From the NCBI GenBank assembly GCA_964432405.1, contig CAYSNH010000001.1, positions 122,932 to 186,931 on the forward strand: a DNA stretch of 64,000 nucleotides, in the 5' to 3' direction. A model generated the notes under the pieces. It saw only the letters and a list, made by a program, of their open reading frames with translations. It did no database searches and was not told the DNA's origin. Shown piece after piece: positions 26,470 through 39,849 of the stretch. This stretch comes from an uncultured Candidatus Saccharibacteria bacterium (GTDB lineage Bacteria > Patescibacteriota > Minisyncoccia > UBA6257 > UBA11618). Both the position numbers and the translations under genes were made by a program. Within the stretch, counting starts at the first letter, position 1. Each line of letters starts with the position of its first letter.

Positions 26470-27572
26470 CTCTTAATCGGCATCAAGATATAAAAGTGAG
26501 ATGTATCATCGGCTGATTTTATTACCGATGGACGATTATTACCATTAACTCCAAAAATTAAATTCTCAGAATCAATAACTTTCAGCCCATCAATTAAATA
26601 ACGCCAATTAAAGGCAACGTTATCAAAATCTTTTCCATCGCTCTTGGTAGGGATCATATAATTATTCTCCCCTAACATCTGATTAGCTAAATAAACCTCC
26701 ATCACCTTATTATTTTTAAGAGCGAGATTAACATCATTATTTTTTCCACTAAAAGTGCTAACTAAACGAACAGCGTTAATAAAATGATCCTTATTAACAC
26801 TTAACTCAGTTTCAATGCTCTTGGGAATAATCTGCTCATAGTCCGGATAATCTCCATCTATTAATCTAGATATTATTTGTAGATTATTGTTCTTAAAAAG
26901 AATTTGATTATCGTCTATAAAAATCTTAATAGGCTCATCATCGCTAAACACCCTTAACACCTCCTGAACAGTCTTCAGTGGAACGATTACCTTAAAGCTG
27001 TGGTTTATATCGGATTTGAATTGATTGGAGCTAATACTCTTCTCTGCGAGCCTAAAACTATCGGTCGCCACTAATTTTATAAGTGTTACTTGATAATCGA
27101 TTAGCAAACCACTAATCTCTGGTCTAATCTCTGATATTTGAGCGGCACTAATAACCTTATTAACAGCCTTTCTTAAAATAACAGGATTGAACTCTATAAA
27201 ATTCTCGCTTTTAACTTGAGGGATAACCGGAAACTCATCTTCTTTAAGTCCTTGGATCTTAGCTTCATAATTATCTGTTTTAAAAATAAAGTTATCTCCA
27301 TCCTTTTCCAAACTAACTCTTTCTTGATTAGTGTTATTAACAATATTGTTTAAAGTATTAAAAGGAATTGTTAATCCACCCTCTTCAATTATTTTTCCGG
27401 AAACAGTTTTTGTAATAGCTAGTTCTAAATTAGTGGTTGAGATATTAATCTTATTACCATTAGTTTTTAATAAAACATTTCTAAGAATTGGTAGATTAGA
27501 ACTTTCCCCTATAGCTCTCTCTACAGAAGATAACCCACCCTTTAAATTACTTTTCAATATAATAACCTTCAT
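26466..27572 (-). CDS. dnaN: DNA polymerase III beta sliding clamp
   Basis: 368 aa with a three-domain clamp pattern, immediately downstream of dnaA. Confidence 0.9.
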   Translation of the reverse strand: MKVIILKSNLKGGLSSVERAIGESSNLPILRNVLLKTNGNKINISTTNLELAITKTVSGKIIEEGGLTIPFNTLNNIVNNTNQERVSLEKDGDNFIFKTDNYEAKIQGLKEDEFPVIPQVKSENFIEFNPVILRKAVNKVISAAQISEIRPEISGLLIDYQVTLIKLVATDSFRLAEKSISSNQFKSDINHSFKVIVPLKTVQEVLRVFSDDEPIKIFIDDNQILFKNNNLQIISRLIDGDYPDYEQIIPKSIETELSVNKDHFINAVRLVSTFSGKNNDVNLALKNNKVMEVYLANQMLGENNYMIPTKSDGKDFDNVAFNWRYLIDGLKVIDSENLIFGVNGNNRPSVIKSADDTSHFYILMPIKS

Positions 27573-27836: not shown

Positions 27837-29198
27837 TTATCCCTTATCAATAATATCTCTGATCATGATTATTTTTTGGTTCAACATTTGATTTTTTAAA
27901 ATCTCTTTTTTGATTTTATCATAGGCATAAATAGCTGTAGTATGATCTCTTTTACCCAATTTATTAGCAATGTAAGGATAAGATAATCCTAAGATATCCC
28001 TCAAAAGATATATAGATACTTGTCGCGGTTCAACAATCTCCTTTTTTCTAGATCGGCTAATTATATCATTGATAGAAATCTCAAAAAAGTTAGATACGAC
28101 TTTCATTATTTGATCAGGATTGGTTGTTTTAGCTGGTTTTTGAACTATATTATCAATTATTTGATCAAGTGTTTTAGCGCTAACCTCCTCTTTTTTAACC
28201 TCTTTATAAAATAAAACCTTATTTAAAATACCTTCCAACTCCCTTAAATTCTTCTGAGTCTTACCAGCTATAGCATTAACAACCTCGTCGCTTAACTCCA
28301 CCCCTTTTTCTTCTAATTTATTACGTAAAACAGCTACCTTAAGCTCGAAATCAGGTGATGATATATCAACTGTCATCCCACCTTCGAAGCGAGAGCTTAG
28401 TCTTTCCTCAAGAACAGGTATGAATTTAGGTGATCTATCAGAAGATAATATAATCTGTTTATTTTGTTCAAATAAGGCATTAAATGTGTGAAAGAACTCC
28501 TCCTCAGTCTTCTCTTTACCACCAATGAATTGAATATCATCAATAATTAAAACATCTATATTTCTATATTTAGCCTTTATAGTATCCATTCTCTTATTTC
28601 TCATCGCCCAAATAACATCATTGGTGAATTTTTCAGAGGAAACATATTTAACTTTAATATTTCCCTTAGACTTCTTTTTTATCTCGTTACCAGCCGCTTG
28701 AATCAGGTGGGTTTTACCAACTCCCACTCCCCCATAAATAAAAAGAGGGTTGTATTTATTACCCACTGAATTAAGAACGGCTGTTATTGCTGCATAAGCT
28801 AGCTCATTAGTTGATCCAACAGCATAAGACTGAAGAGTGTACTGAGGATTGAGGCTGGTTTCAGGGTCTATCTTGAATTCAGTAAAGCTTAACTGAGTTT
28901 CGTTTTCAGAAGGGGTTTTTTCTACAAGATCACTTGGTATTAAAGGTTTCTTTTGAGAGTAGATAATAAACTCGATCTTCTTAACAGTCTCATCTAGCGA
29001 TCGTAAAGAACCTAAAATAACTTTATCGTACTTTTTTTCTACCCATTCCTTAGCAAAGTTATTAGGTAGGCCTATAACTACCAAACCATCTTTCTTATCA
29101 ACAACCTTACTATTCTTAAACCATGTAACGAAGTTAGGTTTTGATACTTGAAGCTCAATATCTCCCAAGGCCTTTTCCCAAAACTGATTTAGATCCAT
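27837..29198 (-). CDS. dnaA: Chromosomal replication initiator DnaA
   Basis: 453 aa; AAA+ Walker A GGVGVGKTHL, and a C-terminal DNA-binding domain. Confidence 0.95.
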   Translation of the reverse strand: MDLNQFWEKALGDIELQVSKPNFVTWFKNSKVVDKKDGLVVIGLPNNFAKEWVEKKYDKVILGSLRSLDETVKKIEFIIYSQKKPLIPSDLVEKTPSENETQLSFTEFKIDPETSLNPQYTLQSYAVGSTNELAYAAITAVLNSVGNKYNPLFIYGGVGVGKTHLIQAAGNEIKKKSKGNIKVKYVSSEKFTNDVIWAMRNKRMDTIKAKYRNIDVLIIDDIQFIGGKEKTEEEFFHTFNALFEQNKQIILSSDRSPKFIPVLEERLSSRFEGGMTVDISSPDFELKVAVLRNKLEEKGVELSDEVVNAIAGKTQKNLRELEGILNKVLFYKEVKKEEVSAKTLDQIIDNIVQKPAKTTNPDQIMKVVSNFFEISINDIISRSRKKEIVEPRQVSIYLLRDILGLSYPYIANKLGKRDHTTAIYAYDKIKKEILKNQMLNQKIIMIRDIIDKG

Positions 29199-29750: not shown

Positions 29751-30479
29751 ATGTTTAACACCTTCCTCACACAACCTATATTCAACGCCCTTATTTTTTT
29801 ATACAACAACATTGGAGATTTTGGAGTATCTATTATTTTATTAACTTTAATTATCAGAACTATTCTCGCTCCTCTTTTTTATAAGAGTTTTAAGAATCAA
29901 ACTCTCTTACAAAAACTTCAACCAGAGATACAAAAAATCCAACACGATCACAAGCATGATCGTGAAGAGCAAGCTCGAAGAATGTTGGAGTTATATCGTC
30001 AACACAAGGTTAACCCTTTTGCTGGCTTCTTGTTAATACTTGTTCAACTACCTATATTAATTGCAGTCTATAGGGTTTTTTATTTAGGAGTCACAGATGA
30101 AACATTAAAAAATCTTTATTCTTTCGTTTCCCACCCGGACGTGGTTAATAGCAGTTTTCTTGGCTTGATTGATTTATCAAATCGGAGTATTCTTATTGTT
30201 GTTTTAGCTGCTGTCTTTCAGTATGTGCACGGTCGTCTAACTCTTCCTAAAATAAAGGAGGGTGAGCCAGAGCCACAAGCTGTTAAGGTTAGCAAGAAGA
30301 TGATTTGGATTGGTCCAGTATTAGCGATCGCTATATTAATAACCATGCCTTCCGCTGTTGGAATTTATTGGTTAACAACAACCTTATTTTCTTTAGCTCA
30401 ACAAATATATATTAATAAAAAGATTTATGGAGATGACGAAAGCAACAATACAACGAATCCTGGAGTTAGTGGGGTTTAA
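29751..30479 (+). CDS. yidC: Membrane protein insertase YidC/Oxa1 (short form)
   Basis: 242 aa with 5 TM; …ILAPLFYKS…LQPEIQKIQ…YRQHKVNPFAG… are conserved YidC core motifs. Confidence 0.85.
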   Translation: MFNTFLTQPIFNALIFLYNNIGDFGVSIILLTLIIRTILAPLFYKSFKNQTLLQKLQPEIQKIQHDHKHDREEQARRMLELYRQHKVNPFAGFLLILVQLPILIAVYRVFYLGVTDETLKNLYSFVSHPDVVNSSFLGLIDLSNRSILIVVLAAVFQYVHGRLTLPKIKEGEPEPQAVKVSKKMIWIGPVLAIAILITMPSAVGIYWLTTTLFSLAQQIYINKKIYGDDESNNTTNPGVSGV

Positions 30480-32003: not shown

Positions 32004-33281
32004 TTATGGTTTAGTAGATGGTTGTTTAACATTGGGAATTTCAACGGTAAAGGTTGATTTATCAACGCGCACATCTAATATTGATGGATTAATTATATAT
32101 AAAATAGTGGTAGCTAGAGCTAAAAGAACAAGTCCAAATATAGCGCTTGTAATAATGTCTTTAGCCTCCGCTATTTTACTAGTATTACCACCTGAAACGG
32201 TCCACATCACGCCGCCGTAGGTAATCATTATAAAAGCAAGAATACCAGATATACCTAAGGCAAACTGATAAATTAAAACTATATAACCACCAATATCTTC
32301 CACTTGCTCCTTTCCTAGTATAGGAACGCAAAGTTTATAACCAAGACCATCCGGCCCACATTCTAATTTTTTAACATTCGTAATCTCAAGGCTGCCCTTA
32401 CCAGACATAAGAAAGGTTAGCTTGTCATTGTAGATTCTCATTGTAGCACTCGACCTAGTCTCTCCCCGTCGCCTTTGTTCATTAGTAACGCGCTCCGCAT
32501 AAGTCCTAGCAGCCGCTCTATTAAACTCATCTCTATTAATATCTAACCAACTTGCTGTTAAAGCAGCGTGATCCTTTATAAAACCACCCTTTCCCTCCCA
32601 TAGAGCTTGAAAAGTGGATCTATATGCCACATCACCTTCTTCAGAATCAAAATAAGCTAAAAGGTCACTTTTACCACCGTTAGCTCTAGCCTTAAAAATA
32701 CCCGAGGGGCCATACTTACTAGCCCACCTTTGATTAAGCCTGGCCTTGTCTTCTGGGTAAAGACTCATGCTCATCAACTCAGTAAAAAATAATTTTTCAT
32801 TAGTGCCATTTCCATCAGAGCCTAAAACAATTCTATCCTCAGGGTAAAGGGTTCCTTGTATAAATAATAATTTACCTCTTAAAACATCGTGACCATTATC
32901 ATTTCCTAGGCGATTTAAATCACTTGAAAAAATATTACCCGTTATTCGCTCGTACTCATCAGCTAACCTTTTTCTATACTCTCCAGACGTGCCTTTTAAT
33001 AAGTTCCAAGTAGTGAGCTCGTCTACATCAAGGTATGGATCGTAAAGAGCTCTCTTCATTGTTTGAGCATCTCTCTTAATTTTTCTAGCTAGATCCACTT
33101 CACTTAAATGATCTAATCTATCTGTTGATGTCGTTCGGTCTATATTTGTCATTGAGACATTTCTTGCCCCAGCCCTTGTTTCAGCTCCTTCTCTGGCAAG
33201 CTCTGCCTCCATAGATAATTGACTAAAGGCAATAGGAGTTGATAGAACAAATAATATTATAATAATAAAAACTTTTCTCAT
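32004..33281 (-). CDS. Secreted protein with C-terminal VirB2/TrbC-like pilin domain
   Basis: 425 aa with a signal peptide MRKVFIIIILFVLSTPIAFS. The C-terminal roughly 90 aa form two hydrophobic helices separated by VSGGNTSKIAEAKD, a pattern shared with the paralogs at 60424..61811. Confidence 0.45.
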   Translation of the reverse strand: MRKVFIIIILFVLSTPIAFSQLSMEAELAREGAETRAGARNVSMTNIDRTTSTDRLDHLSEVDLARKIKRDAQTMKRALYDPYLDVDELTTWNLLKGTSGEYRKRLADEYERITGNIFSSDLNRLGNDNGHDVLRGKLLFIQGTLYPEDRIVLGSDGNGTNEKLFFTELMSMSLYPEDKARLNQRWASKYGPSGIFKARANGGKSDLLAYFDSEEGDVAYRSTFQALWEGKGGFIKDHAALTASWLDINRDEFNRAAARTYAERVTNEQRRRGETRSSATMRIYNDKLTFLMSGKGSLEITNVKKLECGPDGLGYKLCVPILGKEQVEDIGGYIVLIYQFALGISGILAFIMITYGGVMWTVSGGNTSKIAEAKDIITSAIFGLVLLALATTILYIINPSILDVRVDKSTFTVEIPNVKQPSTKP

Positions 33282-33940
33282 TTTATTGTTAGATTTATTT
33301 TTTTAATAGCCACTTCACCAATATTTTTATTATTAATTACATTTATATTTAAATTAACAGAGGTTGGGCTGTTGTTAGTTGGTATATCTAGCTCTAAAAT
33401 ATTAGGCCTCTTAACATCCTTACCAGAGTGCTTAATATTATTAGAAAGCCAATTAAAGTTTAAATCCGATAGATTGCCTATATTAAAAAATAAGGGCCAC
33501 GCCTTAATGATACTTATTCCAGCTGGTATCGTATGATTCATAAAATTTCTTTCAATAATAACTTTGGGAATTACTTTAGGAATGATAAAGCTTTTTTCTA
33601 AATTACCTCCTTCAATATTTTTTATTAAAACCCTAACAAATATATTGCTACGACTCACATTAAATTTATTAGCAGTTATTTTTTGTAGGCCAACACCTTT
33701 TTGAAATAGCTTTCCATCTATATGCCACTCTATTAATTTATTTTTAACATTTAATAATCTACCACCCTCTATTAACTCAAAGCTCATATTTAATGAGGAG
33801 CCGTCAGTTGGCATTATTTTCCCCTGGTAAAATCCTGGTACAAAACTACCCCCCTCCCAATTAAATAAAAATTCTTGTCCTTGAGCAAGAGCGGGTAGAG
33901 ATAATAAACAAATAAAAATTATTAAAATTATACGATTCAT
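33278..33940 (-). CDS. Hypothetical secreted protein
   Basis: 220 aa, signal peptide …LPALAQGQ, N-rich beta-type sequence. Confidence 0.4.
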   Translation of the reverse strand: MNRIILIIFICLLSLPALAQGQEFLFNWEGGSFVPGFYQGKIMPTDGSSLNMSFELIEGGRLLNVKNKLIEWHIDGKLFQKGVGLQKITANKFNVSRSNIFVRVLIKNIEGGNLEKSFIIPKVIPKVIIERNFMNHTIPAGISIIKAWPLFFNIGNLSDLNFNWLSNNIKHSGKDVKRPNILELDIPTNNSPTSVNLNINVINNKNIGEVAIKKINLTIK

Positions 33941-34353
33941 ATTTTAGTAATTACTTTAGTAGTCATCCTAACCTTAGACTTCTTTTTTCTTTTAGGTCCC
34001 CTTTTAACTTTAGACCCCTTACCTGTTACCGAGCTAACTTTATGCACTGTTTCTGAGGCGATTGATTCAGGATGGTTGTGAATGTATATAGTTGAGATAA
34101 GTAAAATCGTCTTTAATGGAAGGGCGTTTAAAAAAGGAATAAACTCAATTAATACTGATGCGGCGTATAACTCACCTCTTGCTCCTCTGAACAATAACCA
34201 AAACTGAACAGGTAGCCACACAATAATATTTATAATCCATTTCACAACTTCTCCTGGTCCAATAGCAAAAGTAACCACCATTTCTATTAACTCAGCAAGA
34301 GCAACAAATCCTACTAAGATAAAAGATTCTATTAATCCAATCTTACTACCCAT
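33937..34353 (-). CDS. Small membrane protein (3-4 TM) downstream of VirB4
   Basis: 138 aa with a hydrophobic core and a basic C-terminal tail. Confidence 0.4.
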   Translation of the reverse strand: MGSKIGLIESFILVGFVALAELIEMVVTFAIGPGEVVKWIINIIVWLPVQFWLLFRGARGELYAASVLIEFIPFLNALPLKTILLISTIYIHNHPESIASETVHKVSSVTGKGSKVKRGPKRKKKSKVRMTTKVITKI

Positions 34354-36043
34354 TTAATAAATCTTTTGGATTAGTTGTAATAATCTGATCTTCAAGATAA
34401 GAAGCTACTATCTTAATAATGACATGATTTAGGCCTGCAAAAAATAGCCCCTCTCCCACAGGGGTGTCTAATAAGAAGTTTTTTTCACTATCCGTTAGAT
34501 TAAAGGTTTTTGCCAATAAATCGATCATTGCTGGTTGTTGCTTTAATAGTATTTGTAGGGCGGAGTTGGTGATAATGGGTCTTCCATAAGGAGATCTTAA
34601 AAAGTCTTCAACGTCTTGAGTGATAGTAGTAACGCCTAAGTAGTATTTTCTCGCTCTCTTAACTAAACCAAACATGAAAGAGGCGCCATCAGGATATTTC
34701 ATCATCCACCAAGCCTCATCAACTATCATTACTCGTTGTTTTAATTCACTCTTAATTAAATTCCAAATAAAGTTAACAATTATATACATTGCTATTGGTC
34801 TTAACTCCTCCTCCAGGTCTCTAATAGAAAAAACAACTAGTCGATTCCTTACATTAACGTTGGTTGGTTGGTTAACAAATCCCGCATAACTTCCCTGGGT
34901 GTATCGATATAGGCGCTGAGCCAAGGACTGACCACCAGTCAAGCTATTAAGAACAGTTTCTAAATCAGATAATAACGGCGGTTGAGCTTTAGAAAAATCT
35001 TTTCCAGGTACTATGTCTCTCGAAGCATAAGTTTCAGCCACAGCTCTGTCTAAGAGAGCTTCTTCTTCAGGAGTTATCTCTCCTAGCATTATCTTTAATA
35101 AGCCAGTTATATTAACTATGTGAGATCGTAGGGCGTCAGCAGGATCTTCATCCTTAGGGATGATTGGTAGATCAAAAGGATTGATATGATCCTTAGAGGC
35201 TAAGGAGATGTTAAAGAAGCTGCCACCTACCGCCTCGGCTAGATTTTTATATTCATTCTCGGGATCGATAATTAAAACATCCGTCCCAGTCATTAGTAGT
35301 CTCAATGCTTCCAGCTTTGCAGCATATGACTTACCAGCACCAGAGGTAGCAAAGATAACTTGATTAGCATTTTCTAGAGAGAATCGATCAAAAATAACTA
35401 AGGTGTTATTACTAAGATTGATACCTTGTAGAACCCCGCTGTCCGAGGTTAGTGTGGCAGAAACAAAAGGAAAAAATGAAGATGCTGGCGAGGAGTTAAA
35501 AGGAGATGTGATCATTAGAGAGTCTGTGCCTATCGGTAAAGCTGCATCAAAAGCCTCTATTTGCTGGAAGGTTGCCGGCTTGCTATAAACCAAGCGACTT
35601 TCTAATAAGTGATTAATCTTACCCTCCAACTTTTTTAATTCATTAACACTATCAGCATAAATAGTTATATAAACCGAGACATTAAATAAATGTTCAGTTG
35701 CTTGCTGTAGGGAGTCTCGTAGAGACTCAACATCTTGAAGAGCCGTCTCTAATTTAGGACTCCTAACCATACCCTTTTCACTTTTCTCAATTACCTGAGA
35801 TTCTATCTGAGCCGTCTTTTTTCTTAAGTTTTTTAAAGCAATAGCTGTATCTACCGGATGAACAAAGATAGATACATCCATTAATTCAGGAGCATTAATA
35901 ATTGGCGAGAACCATCCTGTGGCTAGGTAGCGAGGATAGGCTGAGATAAATATAGTCTTAGTATATTTATTACCCAGCTTTAAATAATTAGGATTAACCT
36001 CTAAAGCAGATGGAGCTATTATATTTTTAATTTCATTATTCAT
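34346..36043 (-). CDS. virB4: VirB4/TraE/TrbE-family T4SS ATPase, ATPase domain
   Basis: 565 aa; Walker A IFATSGAGKSY, the VirB4-characteristic IIDPENEY, and Walker B MIVDEAWWMM, with an overall Gram-positive-type VirB4 layout. Confidence 0.85.
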   Translation of the reverse strand: MNNEIKNIIAPSALEVNPNYLKLGNKYTKTIFISAYPRYLATGWFSPIINAPELMDVSIFVHPVDTAIALKNLRKKTAQIESQVIEKSEKGMVRSPKLETALQDVESLRDSLQQATEHLFNVSVYITIYADSVNELKKLEGKINHLLESRLVYSKPATFQQIEAFDAALPIGTDSLMITSPFNSSPASSFFPFVSATLTSDSGVLQGINLSNNTLVIFDRFSLENANQVIFATSGAGKSYAAKLEALRLLMTGTDVLIIDPENEYKNLAEAVGGSFFNISLASKDHINPFDLPIIPKDEDPADALRSHIVNITGLLKIMLGEITPEEEALLDRAVAETYASRDIVPGKDFSKAQPPLLSDLETVLNSLTGGQSLAQRLYRYTQGSYAGFVNQPTNVNVRNRLVVFSIRDLEEELRPIAMYIIVNFIWNLIKSELKQRVMIVDEAWWMMKYPDGASFMFGLVKRARKYYLGVTTITQDVEDFLRSPYGRPIITNSALQILLKQQPAMIDLLAKTFNLTDSEKNFLLDTPVGEGLFFAGLNHVIIKIVASYLEDQIITTNPKDLLNG

Positions 36044-36709
36044 TTATTTTTTATCTTTCTGAATAGAGACGCCCCTTTTTTCAATTAGTGCTGGATTATA
36101 GAAGTTGTAAAATAGTTCGACGACCTCGTCTTCTGATAAAGGAACGGCTCTCAAGCCAACTCTATTTAAGCCAGCCGTCACCTGATCTACTCTCAGGTCT
36201 AATTGGCGTTTATTTTCTATGAACTGGTCACTTTCAGTCTTCTTTTCTTCCGCCCTCTTCTTTTTAAATAATCCAAATAATCCTCCAGCTATTTTTTTAC
36301 CTATTTTAGGAAGAGCGATCGGATCATAAGGAACTATAATAAAAAAAGTTTTAGACATAATAGGATTTCTTTCTACAAACGCCTTAACAAAATCTCGATA
36401 GTCAGTAATTATATTTTTTAATAAGCTGGTAGGTTCTTTTTGGTGAAGTTTTTTTAATTGATTAAGATAGTTGTCAATATTAATTTTTCGAGAATGAATT
36501 ATTTCTTGAATAGAAAAACTAAGAGAGTTCAAGAATTCTTGATAGCTAAAAATAATCAAATTCTTTTCTTCTTCAGATTTAAGATCGAAGTTAATTCCTG
36601 AAACTAATAATATTTTTCTAAAACCACCGTTTTTTAAAACAACCACATCATCTTTAATATGATCAACGCTGATAATTTCTTGAGTTGCTAAAGATTTTTG
36701 TTTGGGCAT
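36044..36709 (-). CDS. VirB4 N-terminal domain encoded as a separate ORF
   Basis: 221 aa; …DDVVVLKNGGFRKILLVSGINFDLKSEEEKN… matches the CagE/TrbE/VirB N-domain pattern. Its stop TAA is directly followed by the ATG of the ATPase ORF, and the combined length of 786 aa equals canonical VirB4. Confidence 0.55.
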   Translation of the reverse strand: MPKQKSLATQEIISVDHIKDDVVVLKNGGFRKILLVSGINFDLKSEEEKNLIIFSYQEFLNSLSFSIQEIIHSRKINIDNYLNQLKKLHQKEPTSLLKNIITDYRDFVKAFVERNPIMSKTFFIIVPYDPIALPKIGKKIAGGLFGLFKKKRAEEKKTESDQFIENKRQLDLRVDQVTAGLNRVGLRAVPLSEDEVVELFYNFYNPALIEKRGVSIQKDKK

Positions 36710-36723
36710 TGTTTTATTATAAT

Positions 36724-37194
36724 TTATCTATAATCAACACGACGAGCCACTTCTCTTTCGCCGGTAGTTTTTCTAAAAACCTCATATTCATTCTTCATTT
36801 TTTTAAGCCTTTGTAAGAAAGGAAGCATAAAAGACTTCTCTCCCTTAATAGGCTTGCTAGAAGTGTCTAGTTTTAATTTTAAGTTTGATAGTCCTTTTTT
36901 AGCAACTTGCTTACCACCCTTTTTTTTCCAGATGTAAATGCGAGGACGCCAATAATAATTAATCATAGATGTTAAGAGGGTGAGAAACGATCTGCCATTA
37001 TATTTAACAAAGGCAAAAGAGGCGCTTATTATAGCTATTAAAATAGTGAACACTAGCCAGAAATAAAAGTTTAAGACAAAGAAGCTAAAGAAGATTATTA
37101 AGAAGCCAGCTGCAACGTATAAAAACTGTTTAATAGTTAGAGGACCAACTATCCTATCTTCTATATCTATAAATTGAGGGACTTGAAAATGCAT
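36724..37194 (-). CDS. VirB3-like small membrane protein
   Basis: 156 aa; …IVGPLTIKQFLYVAAGFLIIFFSFFV… followed by a second TM helix; positioned immediately upstream of VirB4 as VirB3 usually is. Confidence 0.45.
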   Translation of the reverse strand: MHFQVPQFIDIEDRIVGPLTIKQFLYVAAGFLIIFFSFFVLNFYFWLVFTILIAIISASFAFVKYNGRSFLTLLTSMINYYWRPRIYIWKKKGGKQVAKKGLSNLKLKLDTSSKPIKGEKSFMLPFLQRLKKMKNEYEVFRKTTGEREVARRVDYR

Positions 37195-37989: not shown

Positions 37990-39849
37990 CTAACTAAAAG
38001 ACGGGCCATTTATATAATCCTTTAATTCCTTTAATTCTTTGTATTCTTTTCCACCAGGCGCCATTGATATGAGATCTTCTCTTATGCCTGGACTCTCTCT
38101 TCTCCTTACTTCAGGCATTTTTATTTCTAAATGTTGGTTAATAGTGCTTTGAAGGACCTGCTTCTTTTCTGTTTGAGGTGATCGGGCTAATTCTTTTAAT
38201 TGATTTTTTGTTAGCCCCATAGCCACCTCGACCTTTCTAAGTTCTGAGGTGGCTATATTTACAATCTCTTTAGCAGGAATTTTGCCAGTCGCCTTTCTAA
38301 TTGCTTCAGCTACATTTTCAGTTCCCTCAACAAATTCCCCAGCTAAAGAAGGCATGGTTTTTAGAGCCTCTTCTTTGGAGTTCATCTTTTTAGCTGAGTT
38401 GACAAAAGGTTTTATAGCAGCCTCTCGATCACCCCCTCTTTTATCAAGAAAGTCATCTAATTGACCTCGTTTCGACAGCTCATTAAGCTTAGCAGCTTTA
38501 GCAGTCGCTCCTAATTCTGAGTAACCATATAGCTCCGTGTTATTAAGACCCTTCAACTTTTCATTTTGATAGCTGTCAACTTGCTTTTTTCTATCAGCTC
38601 TCTTTTTAGAGTCTGCATCAGCTCTGTAGCTCGATGTAAATCTTCTAATACCAGGCATTCTAGCTAGTCCAGATCCAGCAGCTCCTAACCCAGCCTTACC
38701 AGCTCGTAAAGGCAGTTTAGCAAATCCTTTACCAATCTTTTTGGTCCTACCCTTAAATCTGTTATAAAGAGCAAGTGAGCTATTTTCCACCATGTCTTTT
38801 GCGCTACTACTTATTTTTTTTGAAATAATCAGATTACCTAGCAATAATCCAATGACAATAGATAGTCGAGCTCCTGTTTCAGCAATATTAGCAATAAAAT
38901 CACTAACATTACCACCGGAACCGCTAATAACACCAAAGACGCCACTAGGATGAGTTTTGAAATTGGTCAAGAAGATAATAGTTAAATAAATAAAGAATAG
39001 TGAAACTGGCAGAAAGGCCAGGTATTCAATGAATTTTCCCTGCCATTCCTCCCAATTCTTTTTAAATTTAGGAATTGCGCTAGAGATTAAGGCTAAGGGT
39101 AGCATTATTAACAACAGGGATAAGGCTATATAACGCACTAGGACTGATAAGGACAATATCATCATAGTACCCCCTCCCAAGACGGTGAAAGCAACAACAA
39201 AAAATAGTGCTGCTAGTAATTGAAGTGATGCCTTGCCAAATTGAAAATCAGCGCTTTCTGTAAATTTATCCTCCTCCTCTTCAAGAGTATCTGTTTTCAT
39301 AGCCTCTTGTAATCCTAGGGCATGTGCAAGAGATTTGGAAAATTCACTGAAGTCCCCGTGGCTAGCGTTTGGAGTTGATTTTGTCACAAAGAAATTACTA
39401 ACAACACCAGTAGCATCAATAAATACACCGGCAATTGATAAGCTAAAGTTGATTAGAAGAGCGACTATAATAATCTTTGGCAAAAGATTTTTATATGTAT
39501 ACCCTTGCAACCTTATAATAGTTCCGATAGCAGCTGTAATTATAGCCACAACCAACAACAAGTTAGCAAAGTCGCGAGATATCTGCCAACCAACTTGTAC
39601 TAAGGGGCTGTTTATTAGATTGGCATTTAATTCCAGACCTACTTGGATTAAAAATCCAGCTATCATAAAGACAATTGCCGCTAAATAACCAATAAGATAG
39701 ACAGCAAAATACAAAAATTTTGCCATTGCGGCATCCACTGCTGAGAGCGTACTGAGAGCGCCGCCCTCTAAAAAACCTGCTTGAGCTAAGCTAGGTATTA
39801 AAATTACCAAGAGTAGAAGTAGAAGTAGTATTTTATGTCCTTTAAACAT
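37990..39849 (-). CDS. VirB6/TrbL-like polytopic membrane protein with long hydrophilic C-terminal domain
   Basis: 619 aa; a signal peptide then at least 7 TM in the first about 370 aa, and a roughly 250-aa charged tail. This resembles Gram-positive VirB6 analogues. Confidence 0.5.
   Translation of the reverse strand: MFKGHKILLLLLLLVILIPSLAQAGFLEGGALSTLSAVDAAMAKFLYFAVYLIGYLAAIVFMIAGFLIQVGLELNANLINSPLVQVGWQISRDFANLLLVVAIITAAIGTIIRLQGYTYKNLLPKIIIVALLINFSLSIAGVFIDATGVVSNFFVTKSTPNASHGDFSEFSKSLAHALGLQEAMKTDTLEEEEDKFTESADFQFGKASLQLLAALFFVVAFTVLGGGTMMILSLSVLVRYIALSLLLIMLPLALISSAIPKFKKNWEEWQGKFIEYLAFLPVSLFFIYLTIIFLTNFKTHPSGVFGVISGSGGNVSDFIANIAETGARLSIVIGLLLGNLIISKKISSSAKDMVENSSLALYNRFKGRTKKIGKGFAKLPLRAGKAGLGAAGSGLARMPGIRRFTSSYRADADSKKRADRKKQVDSYQNEKLKGLNNTELYGYSELGATAKAAKLNELSKRGQLDDFLDKRGGDREAAIKPFVNSAKKMNSKEEALKTMPSLAGEFVEGTENVAEAIRKATGKIPAKEIVNIATSELRKVEVAMGLTKNQLKELARSPQTEKKQVLQSTINQHLEIKMPEVRRRESPGIREDLISMAPGGKEYKELKELKDYINGPSFS

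Follow-up and report, generated by a model that had tools for sequence, protein, structure and literature searches.

A probable two-gene VirB4 in a type IV secretion operon of a Candidatus Saccharibacteria genome

Introduction

The question raised by this locus is whether a VirB4 ATPase encoded in two abutting pieces represents two genuine genes or a single gene that has been broken. The window, which is the whole stretch of DNA that was analysed, comprises 64,000 nucleotides (nt) from an uncultured Candidatus Saccharibacteria bacterium (contig CAYSNH010000001.1), and the coordinates given below are positions within it. Inside a type IV secretion system (T4SS) operon on the minus strand, an open reading frame (ORF) of 221 amino acids (aa) ends in a TAA codon (36046-36044) that is followed directly by the ATG (36043-36041) of a second ORF of 565 aa. 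The original prediction described this arrangement and offered three explanations for it: a genuine two-gene VirB4, a recent nonsense mutation in an otherwise continuous gene, or a sequencing error. The positions, the TAA-ATG adjacency, the shared frame and the combined length of 786 aa (221 + 565) that it gave were all borne out by the sequence. In our view, the most consistent interpretation is the first of the three, a genuine and conserved two-gene VirB4 in which an N-terminal module and a core assemble as one motor, and we put its probability at roughly 90%.

The features on which the argument depends are as follows.

36044..36709, minus strand: putative detached N-terminal module of VirB4, 221 aa, TrsD-like / Pfam PF26593 'TraC-like' (ORF list, NCBIfam).
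34346..36043, minus strand: VirB4 core gene, 565 aa, without the first ~185 positions of full-length VirB4 (NCBIfam, Pfam).
36041..36046, minus strand: junction at which the TAA of the N-module gene abuts the ATG of the core gene, the two codons sharing a frame with no nt between them.
36047..36097, minus strand: residues 205-221 at the C-terminal end of the N module, a poorly conserved tail of low confidence that corresponds to the linker region in fused homologues.
35381..36043, minus strand: second part of the VirB4 N-terminal half (core residues 1-221), outside the match to PDB entry 4AG5 and covered by full-length VirB4 profiles.
34376..35380, minus strand: RecA-like ATPase domain (core residues 222-556), phmmer match to 4AG5, E 8.4e-41.
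35327..35350, minus strand: Walker A, ATSGAGKS (core residues 232-239), aligned with the P-loop of 4AG5.
34712..34732, minus strand: Walker B region, VMIVDEA (core residues 438-444), aligned with VLVVDEA of 4AG5.

Two polypeptides covering one VirB4

The 565-aa core matches the Pfam families P-loop_TraG, AAA_10 and DUF87 and passes the curated cutoff of the NCBIfam model conju_CD1110 (NF045971), scoring 377.8 bits against a cutoff of 325 (E 1e-112). The generic TIGR00929 cutoff is not reached (121.5 vs 643 bits). Residues 4-540 of the core correspond to CD1110 profile positions 186-731 of 752, and residues 23-529 to TIGR00929 positions 237-729; profile positions ~1-185 are absent from this polypeptide and are encoded by the separate ORF upstream. 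The structure that it matches best in its C-terminal part, 4AG5, is the VirB4 C-terminal domain of Thermoanaerobacter pseudethanolicus. The core is thus best described as a VirB4-type ATPase, its activity being predicted. A protein 100% identical to it (P0270) is called on five public contigs.

The 221-aa ORF, which includes the motif VVVLKNGGFRKILLVSGINFDL, matches the beginning of the same profiles. Its residues 15-194 align with TIGR00929 (VirB4_CagE) positions 15-183 of 792 (E 1e-6), its residues 10-110 align with CD1110 positions 2-102 of 752, and a profile search places it on PRK13853 positions 19-180. An AlphaFold2 (AF2) model of the ORF has a predicted local distance difference test (pLDDT) score of 72, and its best 14 PDB matches found with Foldseek are all TrwK/VirB4 of the R388 machine (E 4.6e-4, probability 1.0, template-modelling score 0.42). 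The original prediction had allowed that this ORF might bear no resemblance to VirB4 N-terminal domains, which would have left the two genes unrelated; both the NCBIfam VirB4 profile and the TrwK/VirB4 fold do match it. Precomputed PF26593 'TraC-like' matches exist for a protein identical to the ORF and for each of its 120 listed homologues, and the identity of the ORF is drawn from these NCBIfam, Foldseek and precomputed Pfam matches. It is filed here as a putative 'TrsD-like / PF26593 TraC-like VirB4 N-module'.

Since the N-terminal ORF matches precisely the positions that the core lacks, the two products are colinear, non-overlapping and complementary pieces of one full-length VirB4. Jointly they cover TIGR00929 in order (positions 15-183, then 237-729), and an AF2 model of the concatenated pair aligns with the 799-residue chain of TrwK over 802 columns (Foldseek, E 1e-20). 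The original prediction had called the pieces the N-domain and the ATPase ORF. Both are indeed pieces of VirB4, but the second keeps ~220 residues ahead of its ATPase domain, and the break therefore lies inside the classical VirB4 N-terminal half, after the first ~200-residue alpha/beta module. The split point is a variable, low-confidence linker of VirB4: residues 205-221 of the N module have pLDDT values below 50 in the AF2 model, and the alignment of N-module homologues has variable ends. The junction stretch itself, AAAGATAAAAAATAAATG, is A-rich and of low complexity.

Conservation and age of the split

The junction was tabulated in 80 species-representative Patescibacteria loci, comprising 73 that are split, five that are fused and two in which it lies off the contig. 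As to whether related genomes carry the fused or the split form, which the original prediction had left to be checked, 73 of the 78 scorable species-level loci are split, with the N gene directly upstream of the C gene in all 73. The same prediction had asked about conservation of the stop; here the split itself is kept, but the zero-spacer in-frame TAA is not, being found in 0 of the 73 split loci. Their spacers range from -14 to +436 nt, their frame offsets are 1, 2 and 0 in 44, 19 and 10 loci, respectively, and their N genes end in TAA (56), TGA (10) or TAG (7), the common junction types being TAAnATG (13) and ATGA (6). The two-gene state is thus the majority state across Patescibacteria, and the split is an old one. 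An alternative genetic code was considered and rejected because TAA is the commonest stop in the N genes of the relatives, with TGA or TAG at the same junction elsewhere.

Homologues of the individual pieces follow the same pattern. Among the closest 120 homologues of the core, 93 are 528-596 aa long, and the nine closest are all of 528-567 aa. The N ORF has 747 homologues. Each of the best 120 is a stand-alone protein of 196-255 aa, and together these span 98% down to ~50% identity; all of the named ones are from Patescibacteria. When 1.84 billion cluster representatives were searched with a profile of the N module, 3,377 clusters were matched, and of the best 150 cluster representatives 149 are stand-alone and one is a fused protein of 797 aa. 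Matches of 280-478 aa in this search were considered as truncated fused proteins and rejected, since their extensions are Pro/Gln-rich low-complexity sequence with no VirB4 sequence. Many stand-alone N homologues (P0137, P0165, P0185, P0229, P0243, P0261 and ~35 others) carry tails of 80-230 residues rich in Pro, Gln, Thr and Ala. These tails are mostly C-terminal, with some at the N-terminus, and a C-terminal tail is incompatible with fusion to the ATPase core at that end.

Both genes are under strong purifying selection, with neither of them decaying. The ratio of nonsynonymous to synonymous substitution rates (dN/dS) in comparisons with the 83% and 80% identical relatives is 0.08-0.09 for the N gene and 0.03 for the C gene, at dS >1; compared with the 98% identical relative the N-gene value is 0.21, calculated on very few substitutions. 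The start of the core protein, MNNEIKNII, and its ATG are conserved in the relatives. An identical 33-nt junction is present in eight loci from different samples (sources JGI, ENA and Logan). Identical junctions, split relatives and purifying selection together support the genuine two-gene option.

The in-frame adjacency that first drew attention to this locus is probably incidental, with no function of its own, since the three nearest relatives overlap out of frame and a single indel accounts for the window. In the 98% identical relative (three assemblies) the N gene ends in the TGA of an ATGA overlap of 4 nt, and in the 83% and 80% relatives the overlaps are of 11 and 8 nt. The window and the 98% relative differ here by an indel of 7 nt within the N gene's A-rich, unconserved tail, as a consequence of which the TAA just ahead of the ATG enters the N frame. 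The adjacency would then be neither the remnant of a continuous gene nor a read-through signal.

We note some unusual spacers between the two genes in other species. In locus L036 (~907-964) a 58-nt spacer holds a perfect palindrome, GAGGTTCAACCTCCTGCAGGAGGTTGAACCTC, for which a hairpin, a terminator-like element and a small repeat inserted at this point are possible readings. Spacers of 420-436 nt occur in three species (L004, 4709-5128; L048, 4679-5114; L069, 4643-5064), and that of L048 has repeated TAGCT-type motifs right after the N stop.

Fused relatives

Single-chain forms in which the N module and the core are fused occur in five of the 78 loci and in 27 of the 120 closest C homologues, so that natural fusions make up ~6-22% of close relatives. 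The fused homologues are 783-807 aa long, apart from one partial record of 718 aa, and those found with the core share 69-73% identity with it. Both PF26593 and P-loop_TraG are on record in 26 of the 27, the partial record being without PF26593. They align straight across the junction with no sequence lost or duplicated, and two of them retain a Met at the position of the core start. The fused VirB4 ORFs located in the tabulated loci are listed below; further fused proteins include P0280, P0281 and P0293.

L002, 4001-6361: fused VirB4 ORF.
L076, 4001-6355: fused VirB4 ORF.
L077, 746-3103: fused VirB4 ORF.
L079, 3086-5455: fused VirB4 ORF.
L080, 4001-6091: fused VirB4 ORF that crosses 100 masked N bases, so that its length of 697 aa is unreliable.

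Such fusions provide Rosetta-stone evidence that both products work as one unit, whichever state came first. In neighbour-joining (NJ) trees, which are unbootstrapped and were rooted on a single outgroup (pGO1 TrsD+TrsE), the fused forms are nested within the split forms and the clade of the window is wholly split. Most of the fused proteins fall in one region of the C-part tree, together with two small separate clades, and Fitch parsimony on the NJ tree gives a split root with a minimum of four changes. One protein of split length (P0304, 596 aa) is nested among near-identical fused proteins of 790 aa; either its gene was split again secondarily or its start was wrongly called in the source annotation.

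Proposed assembly and translation

In the inner-membrane complex of the R388 machine, as seen by cryo-EM, the N-terminus of VirB4 is proximal to the membrane and faces VirB3. The N module would occupy the corresponding site here, toward the membrane and toward VirB3, which in this operon is the PrgI family protein encoded just upstream. The tight stop/start junction would couple the translation of both genes and give near-equimolar output. The coupling would probably proceed by termination-reinitiation, since no Shine-Dalgarno-like motif is present in the 25 nt upstream of any of ten operon gene starts (minus strand: 41249, 39849, 37975, 37194, 36709, 36043, 34353, 33940, 33281 and 31999). A Shine-Dalgarno-driven restart at the core gene was rejected for the same reason, the motif being absent upstream of all ten genes. 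All ten leaders are A/T-rich and several of the genes overlap by 4-8 nt, which suggests Shine-Dalgarno-independent or coupled initiation in this genome.

Several points weigh against the two-gene reading or parts of it, and we collect them here. The non-covalent assembly of the N and C proteins into a working VirB4 is a predicted binding, and the AF2 model of the concatenated pair has low confidence (pLDDT 62, predicted template-modelling score 0.44); for this reason the model was used for colinearity only. It is the junction geometry, and this only, that suggests translational coupling. A local Pfam-A scan of the N ORF gave no match, and a phmmer search with it against PDB sequences returned nothing even at E 10. 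Its match to the TrsD/TraD model NF041427 is weak (37 bits, E 3e-9), falling short of the curated cutoff of 200 bits, which pGO1 TrsD passes with 227.6. An hhalign comparison of the N-homologue profile A1 with pGO1 TrsD is likewise weak (probability 45%, E 2e-4, 67 columns). Because of these two results, strict membership of the TrsD family was not assigned. The Pro/Gln-rich tails of many homologues hint at roles of the N module beyond completing VirB4. The polarity of the change, with the split state ancestral and few secondary fusions, is tentative, coming as it does from unbootstrapped NJ trees with one outgroup.

Alternative explanations

One alternative is that the 221-aa protein diverged as a paralogue of the VirB4 N-terminus and has a role of its own, for example as an adaptor or a regulator. 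TrsD homologues in Gracilibacteria are reported without virB4 association (Quinonero-Coronel et al., Microb Genom 2025; PMC12102498), and the long low-complexity tails on many homologues would also suit an independent role. Against this, the positions missing from the neighbouring VirB4 are exactly those found in the 221-aa protein, the two genes are adjacent in all 73 split loci, and the natural end-to-end fusions show neither loss nor duplication. We regard a paralogue with a separate role as improbable.

A second alternative is programmed read-through of the stop codon, yielding separate proteins plus some fused 786-aa VirB4. The zero-spacer in-frame geometry is compatible with this, and in relatives the fused proteins evidently work. 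However, 63 of the 73 split loci are out of frame and none of the ten in-frame loci has a zero spacer; the 98% relative is out of frame; the commonest N stop is TAA (56 of 73); and a spacer of zero nt offers no conserved read-through context or structure. Programmed read-through is accordingly very improbable. A related and more speculative idea is that the locus stands 'one step from fusion', with low-level read-through to a 786-aa VirB4, and that toggling between split and fused states is possibly adaptive, which we consider quite unlikely. If such toggling were adaptive rather than neutral, it might uncouple the dosage of the N module or allow Pro/Gln-rich tails to be acquired.

The second explanation in the original prediction was a recent nonsense mutation, by which a TAA arose in a continuous 786-aa virB4, leaving a pseudogene or a truncated gene. 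It is true that both ORFs share one frame without a spacer, that a single substitution in the TAA would rejoin them, and that fused homologues of 783-807 aa exist at 70-73% identity over the C part. The nearest relatives (98%, 83% and 80%) are, however, split as well and in other frames; the nine closest core homologues are all of split length and the clade of the window is entirely split; and the low dN/dS of the N gene and the conserved start of the C gene are not those of a broken gene. A recent mutation of this kind is hardly credible.

A sequencing or assembly error, by which the stop or the 7-nt insertion would be spurious, has next to no probability: indel errors are plausible in the A-rich low-complexity junction and the 98% relative differs exactly there, but the exact junction recurs in eight loci, which come from different samples and from three assembly sources, and this excludes an assembly error, and two genes are present under either version of the junction, so that the conclusion is independent of it.

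The operon and its surroundings

The two genes lie in a tightly packed string on the minus strand, in the order 619-aa gene, 259-aa gene, PrgI/VirB3-like gene, N gene, C gene, 138-aa ORF, 220-aa gene and the gene of a T4SS pilin-domain protein. The same gene order is found in relatives, as well as on contigs that encode the identical N protein. The neighbouring features are as follows.

36724..37194, minus strand: gene of a PrgI family (VirB3-like) membrane protein, next to the N gene on its upstream side (Pfam PF12666, E 7.9e-10).
32004..33281, minus strand: operon gene on the downstream side, with a T4SS pilin domain in the C-terminal part of the product (Pfam PF18895 T4SS_pilin, E 9.4e-10).
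37990..39849, minus strand: 619-aa gene upstream in the same gene string, with long hydrophobic stretches and no Pfam match.
33937..34353, minus strand: 138-aa ORF sharing 8 nt with the 3' end of the ATPase gene, no Pfam match.
26466..27572, minus strand: dnaN.
27837..29198, minus strand: dnaA.
29751..30479, plus strand: yidC.

The 619-aa product is possibly a VirB6-like channel component, and its equivalent is of 621 aa in the 98% relative and 619 aa in the contigs with the identical N protein. In the 138-aa ORF, hydrophobic segments precede a tail rich in Lys, and the ORF keeps its position in relatives (138 and 147 aa). In the pilin-domain protein the T4SS_pilin domain comprises residues 337-397 of 425 and the large N-terminal part has no assigned family, which is unusual compared with the small VirB2 pilins. 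A fusion of VirB3 to VirB4 is absent at this locus, as judged by the Pfam scan. The genes dnaA, dnaN and yidC lie 3-7 kb from the T4SS operon on its downstream side, and the system is therefore taken to be chromosomal and proximal to the origin.

Implications

The result is of use mainly in annotation, where the locus should be entered as a pair of real genes, one for a TrsD-like VirB4 N-module and the other for a VirB4 core, and not as a frameshifted or interrupted virB4. The Rosetta-stone-type evidence described above further suggests that TrsD-like proteins are the detached N-terminal module of VirB4, because of the colinear profile mapping, the neighbouring VirB4 without that module and the natural fusions. 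This would be a modest addition to the literature. The T4SS is reported to be essential for the epibiotic lifestyle, and with it the role of a VirB4 N-module would be useful for structural and genetic work, although it would be unsurprising to specialists.

Comparison with known systems

Canonical VirB4 proteins, such as TrwK of R388 (PDB entries 7O43 and 8RTD), the CD1110 family of CTn2 and Agrobacterium VirB4, are covered end to end by the N and C products. They are single-chain proteins, whereas in the window the first ~200 residues are a separate polypeptide. Variation in the linkage of modules within a fixed gene order is also seen in the VirB3-VirB4 fusions of systems such as those of Campylobacter and Actinobacillus (cited in PMC12102498), but these differ in direction, being fusion and not fission, and affect another boundary.

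An equivalent two-gene arrangement is found in TrsD/TraD-TrsE/TraE of the Staphylococcus aureus plasmids pGO1/pSK41 (MPF_FATA). In pGO1 (NC_012547) a small membrane ORF of 135 aa is followed by TrsD (227 aa) and a DUF87 ATPase of 672 aa, which compares with PrgI, 221 aa and 565 aa in the window. The break falls at a similar site, as residues 30-611 of TrsE correspond to CD1110 positions 183-730 and residues 4-540 of the window core to positions 186-731, and the core matches pGO1 TrsE over nearly its full length (BLASTP E 8e-35). The similarity of the N module to pGO1 TrsD is weak at the sequence level. The two systems also differ in the length of the ATPase (672 vs 565 aa), in the spacer, which is 14 nt in pGO1, and in location, that of pGO1 being a conjugative plasmid and that of the window chromosomal.

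The closest counterpart is the 'TrsD + VirB4' pair published for Patescibacteria. Quinonero-Coronel et al. (PMC12102498) report TrsD homologues as the most abundant T4SS component in this phylum, with 2,272 homologues of which 1,664 are associated with virB4, and list the TrsD homologue as essential in Ca. Southlakia epibionticum ML1. That account counts TrsD as a component of its own, having 'no function assigned', and the passages drawn on here mention neither an adjacent VirB4 without the matching N module nor fused TrsD-VirB4 proteins. The Patescibacteria T4SS is also reported to lie often near the replication origin (PMC12102498). The window shares with the published pair its phylum, the make-up of the operon (PrgI/VirB3, TrsD-like, VirB4 and a VirB2-like pilin) and the proximity to the origin; as far as that report describes it, the arrangement is already known and the window is one more case of it.

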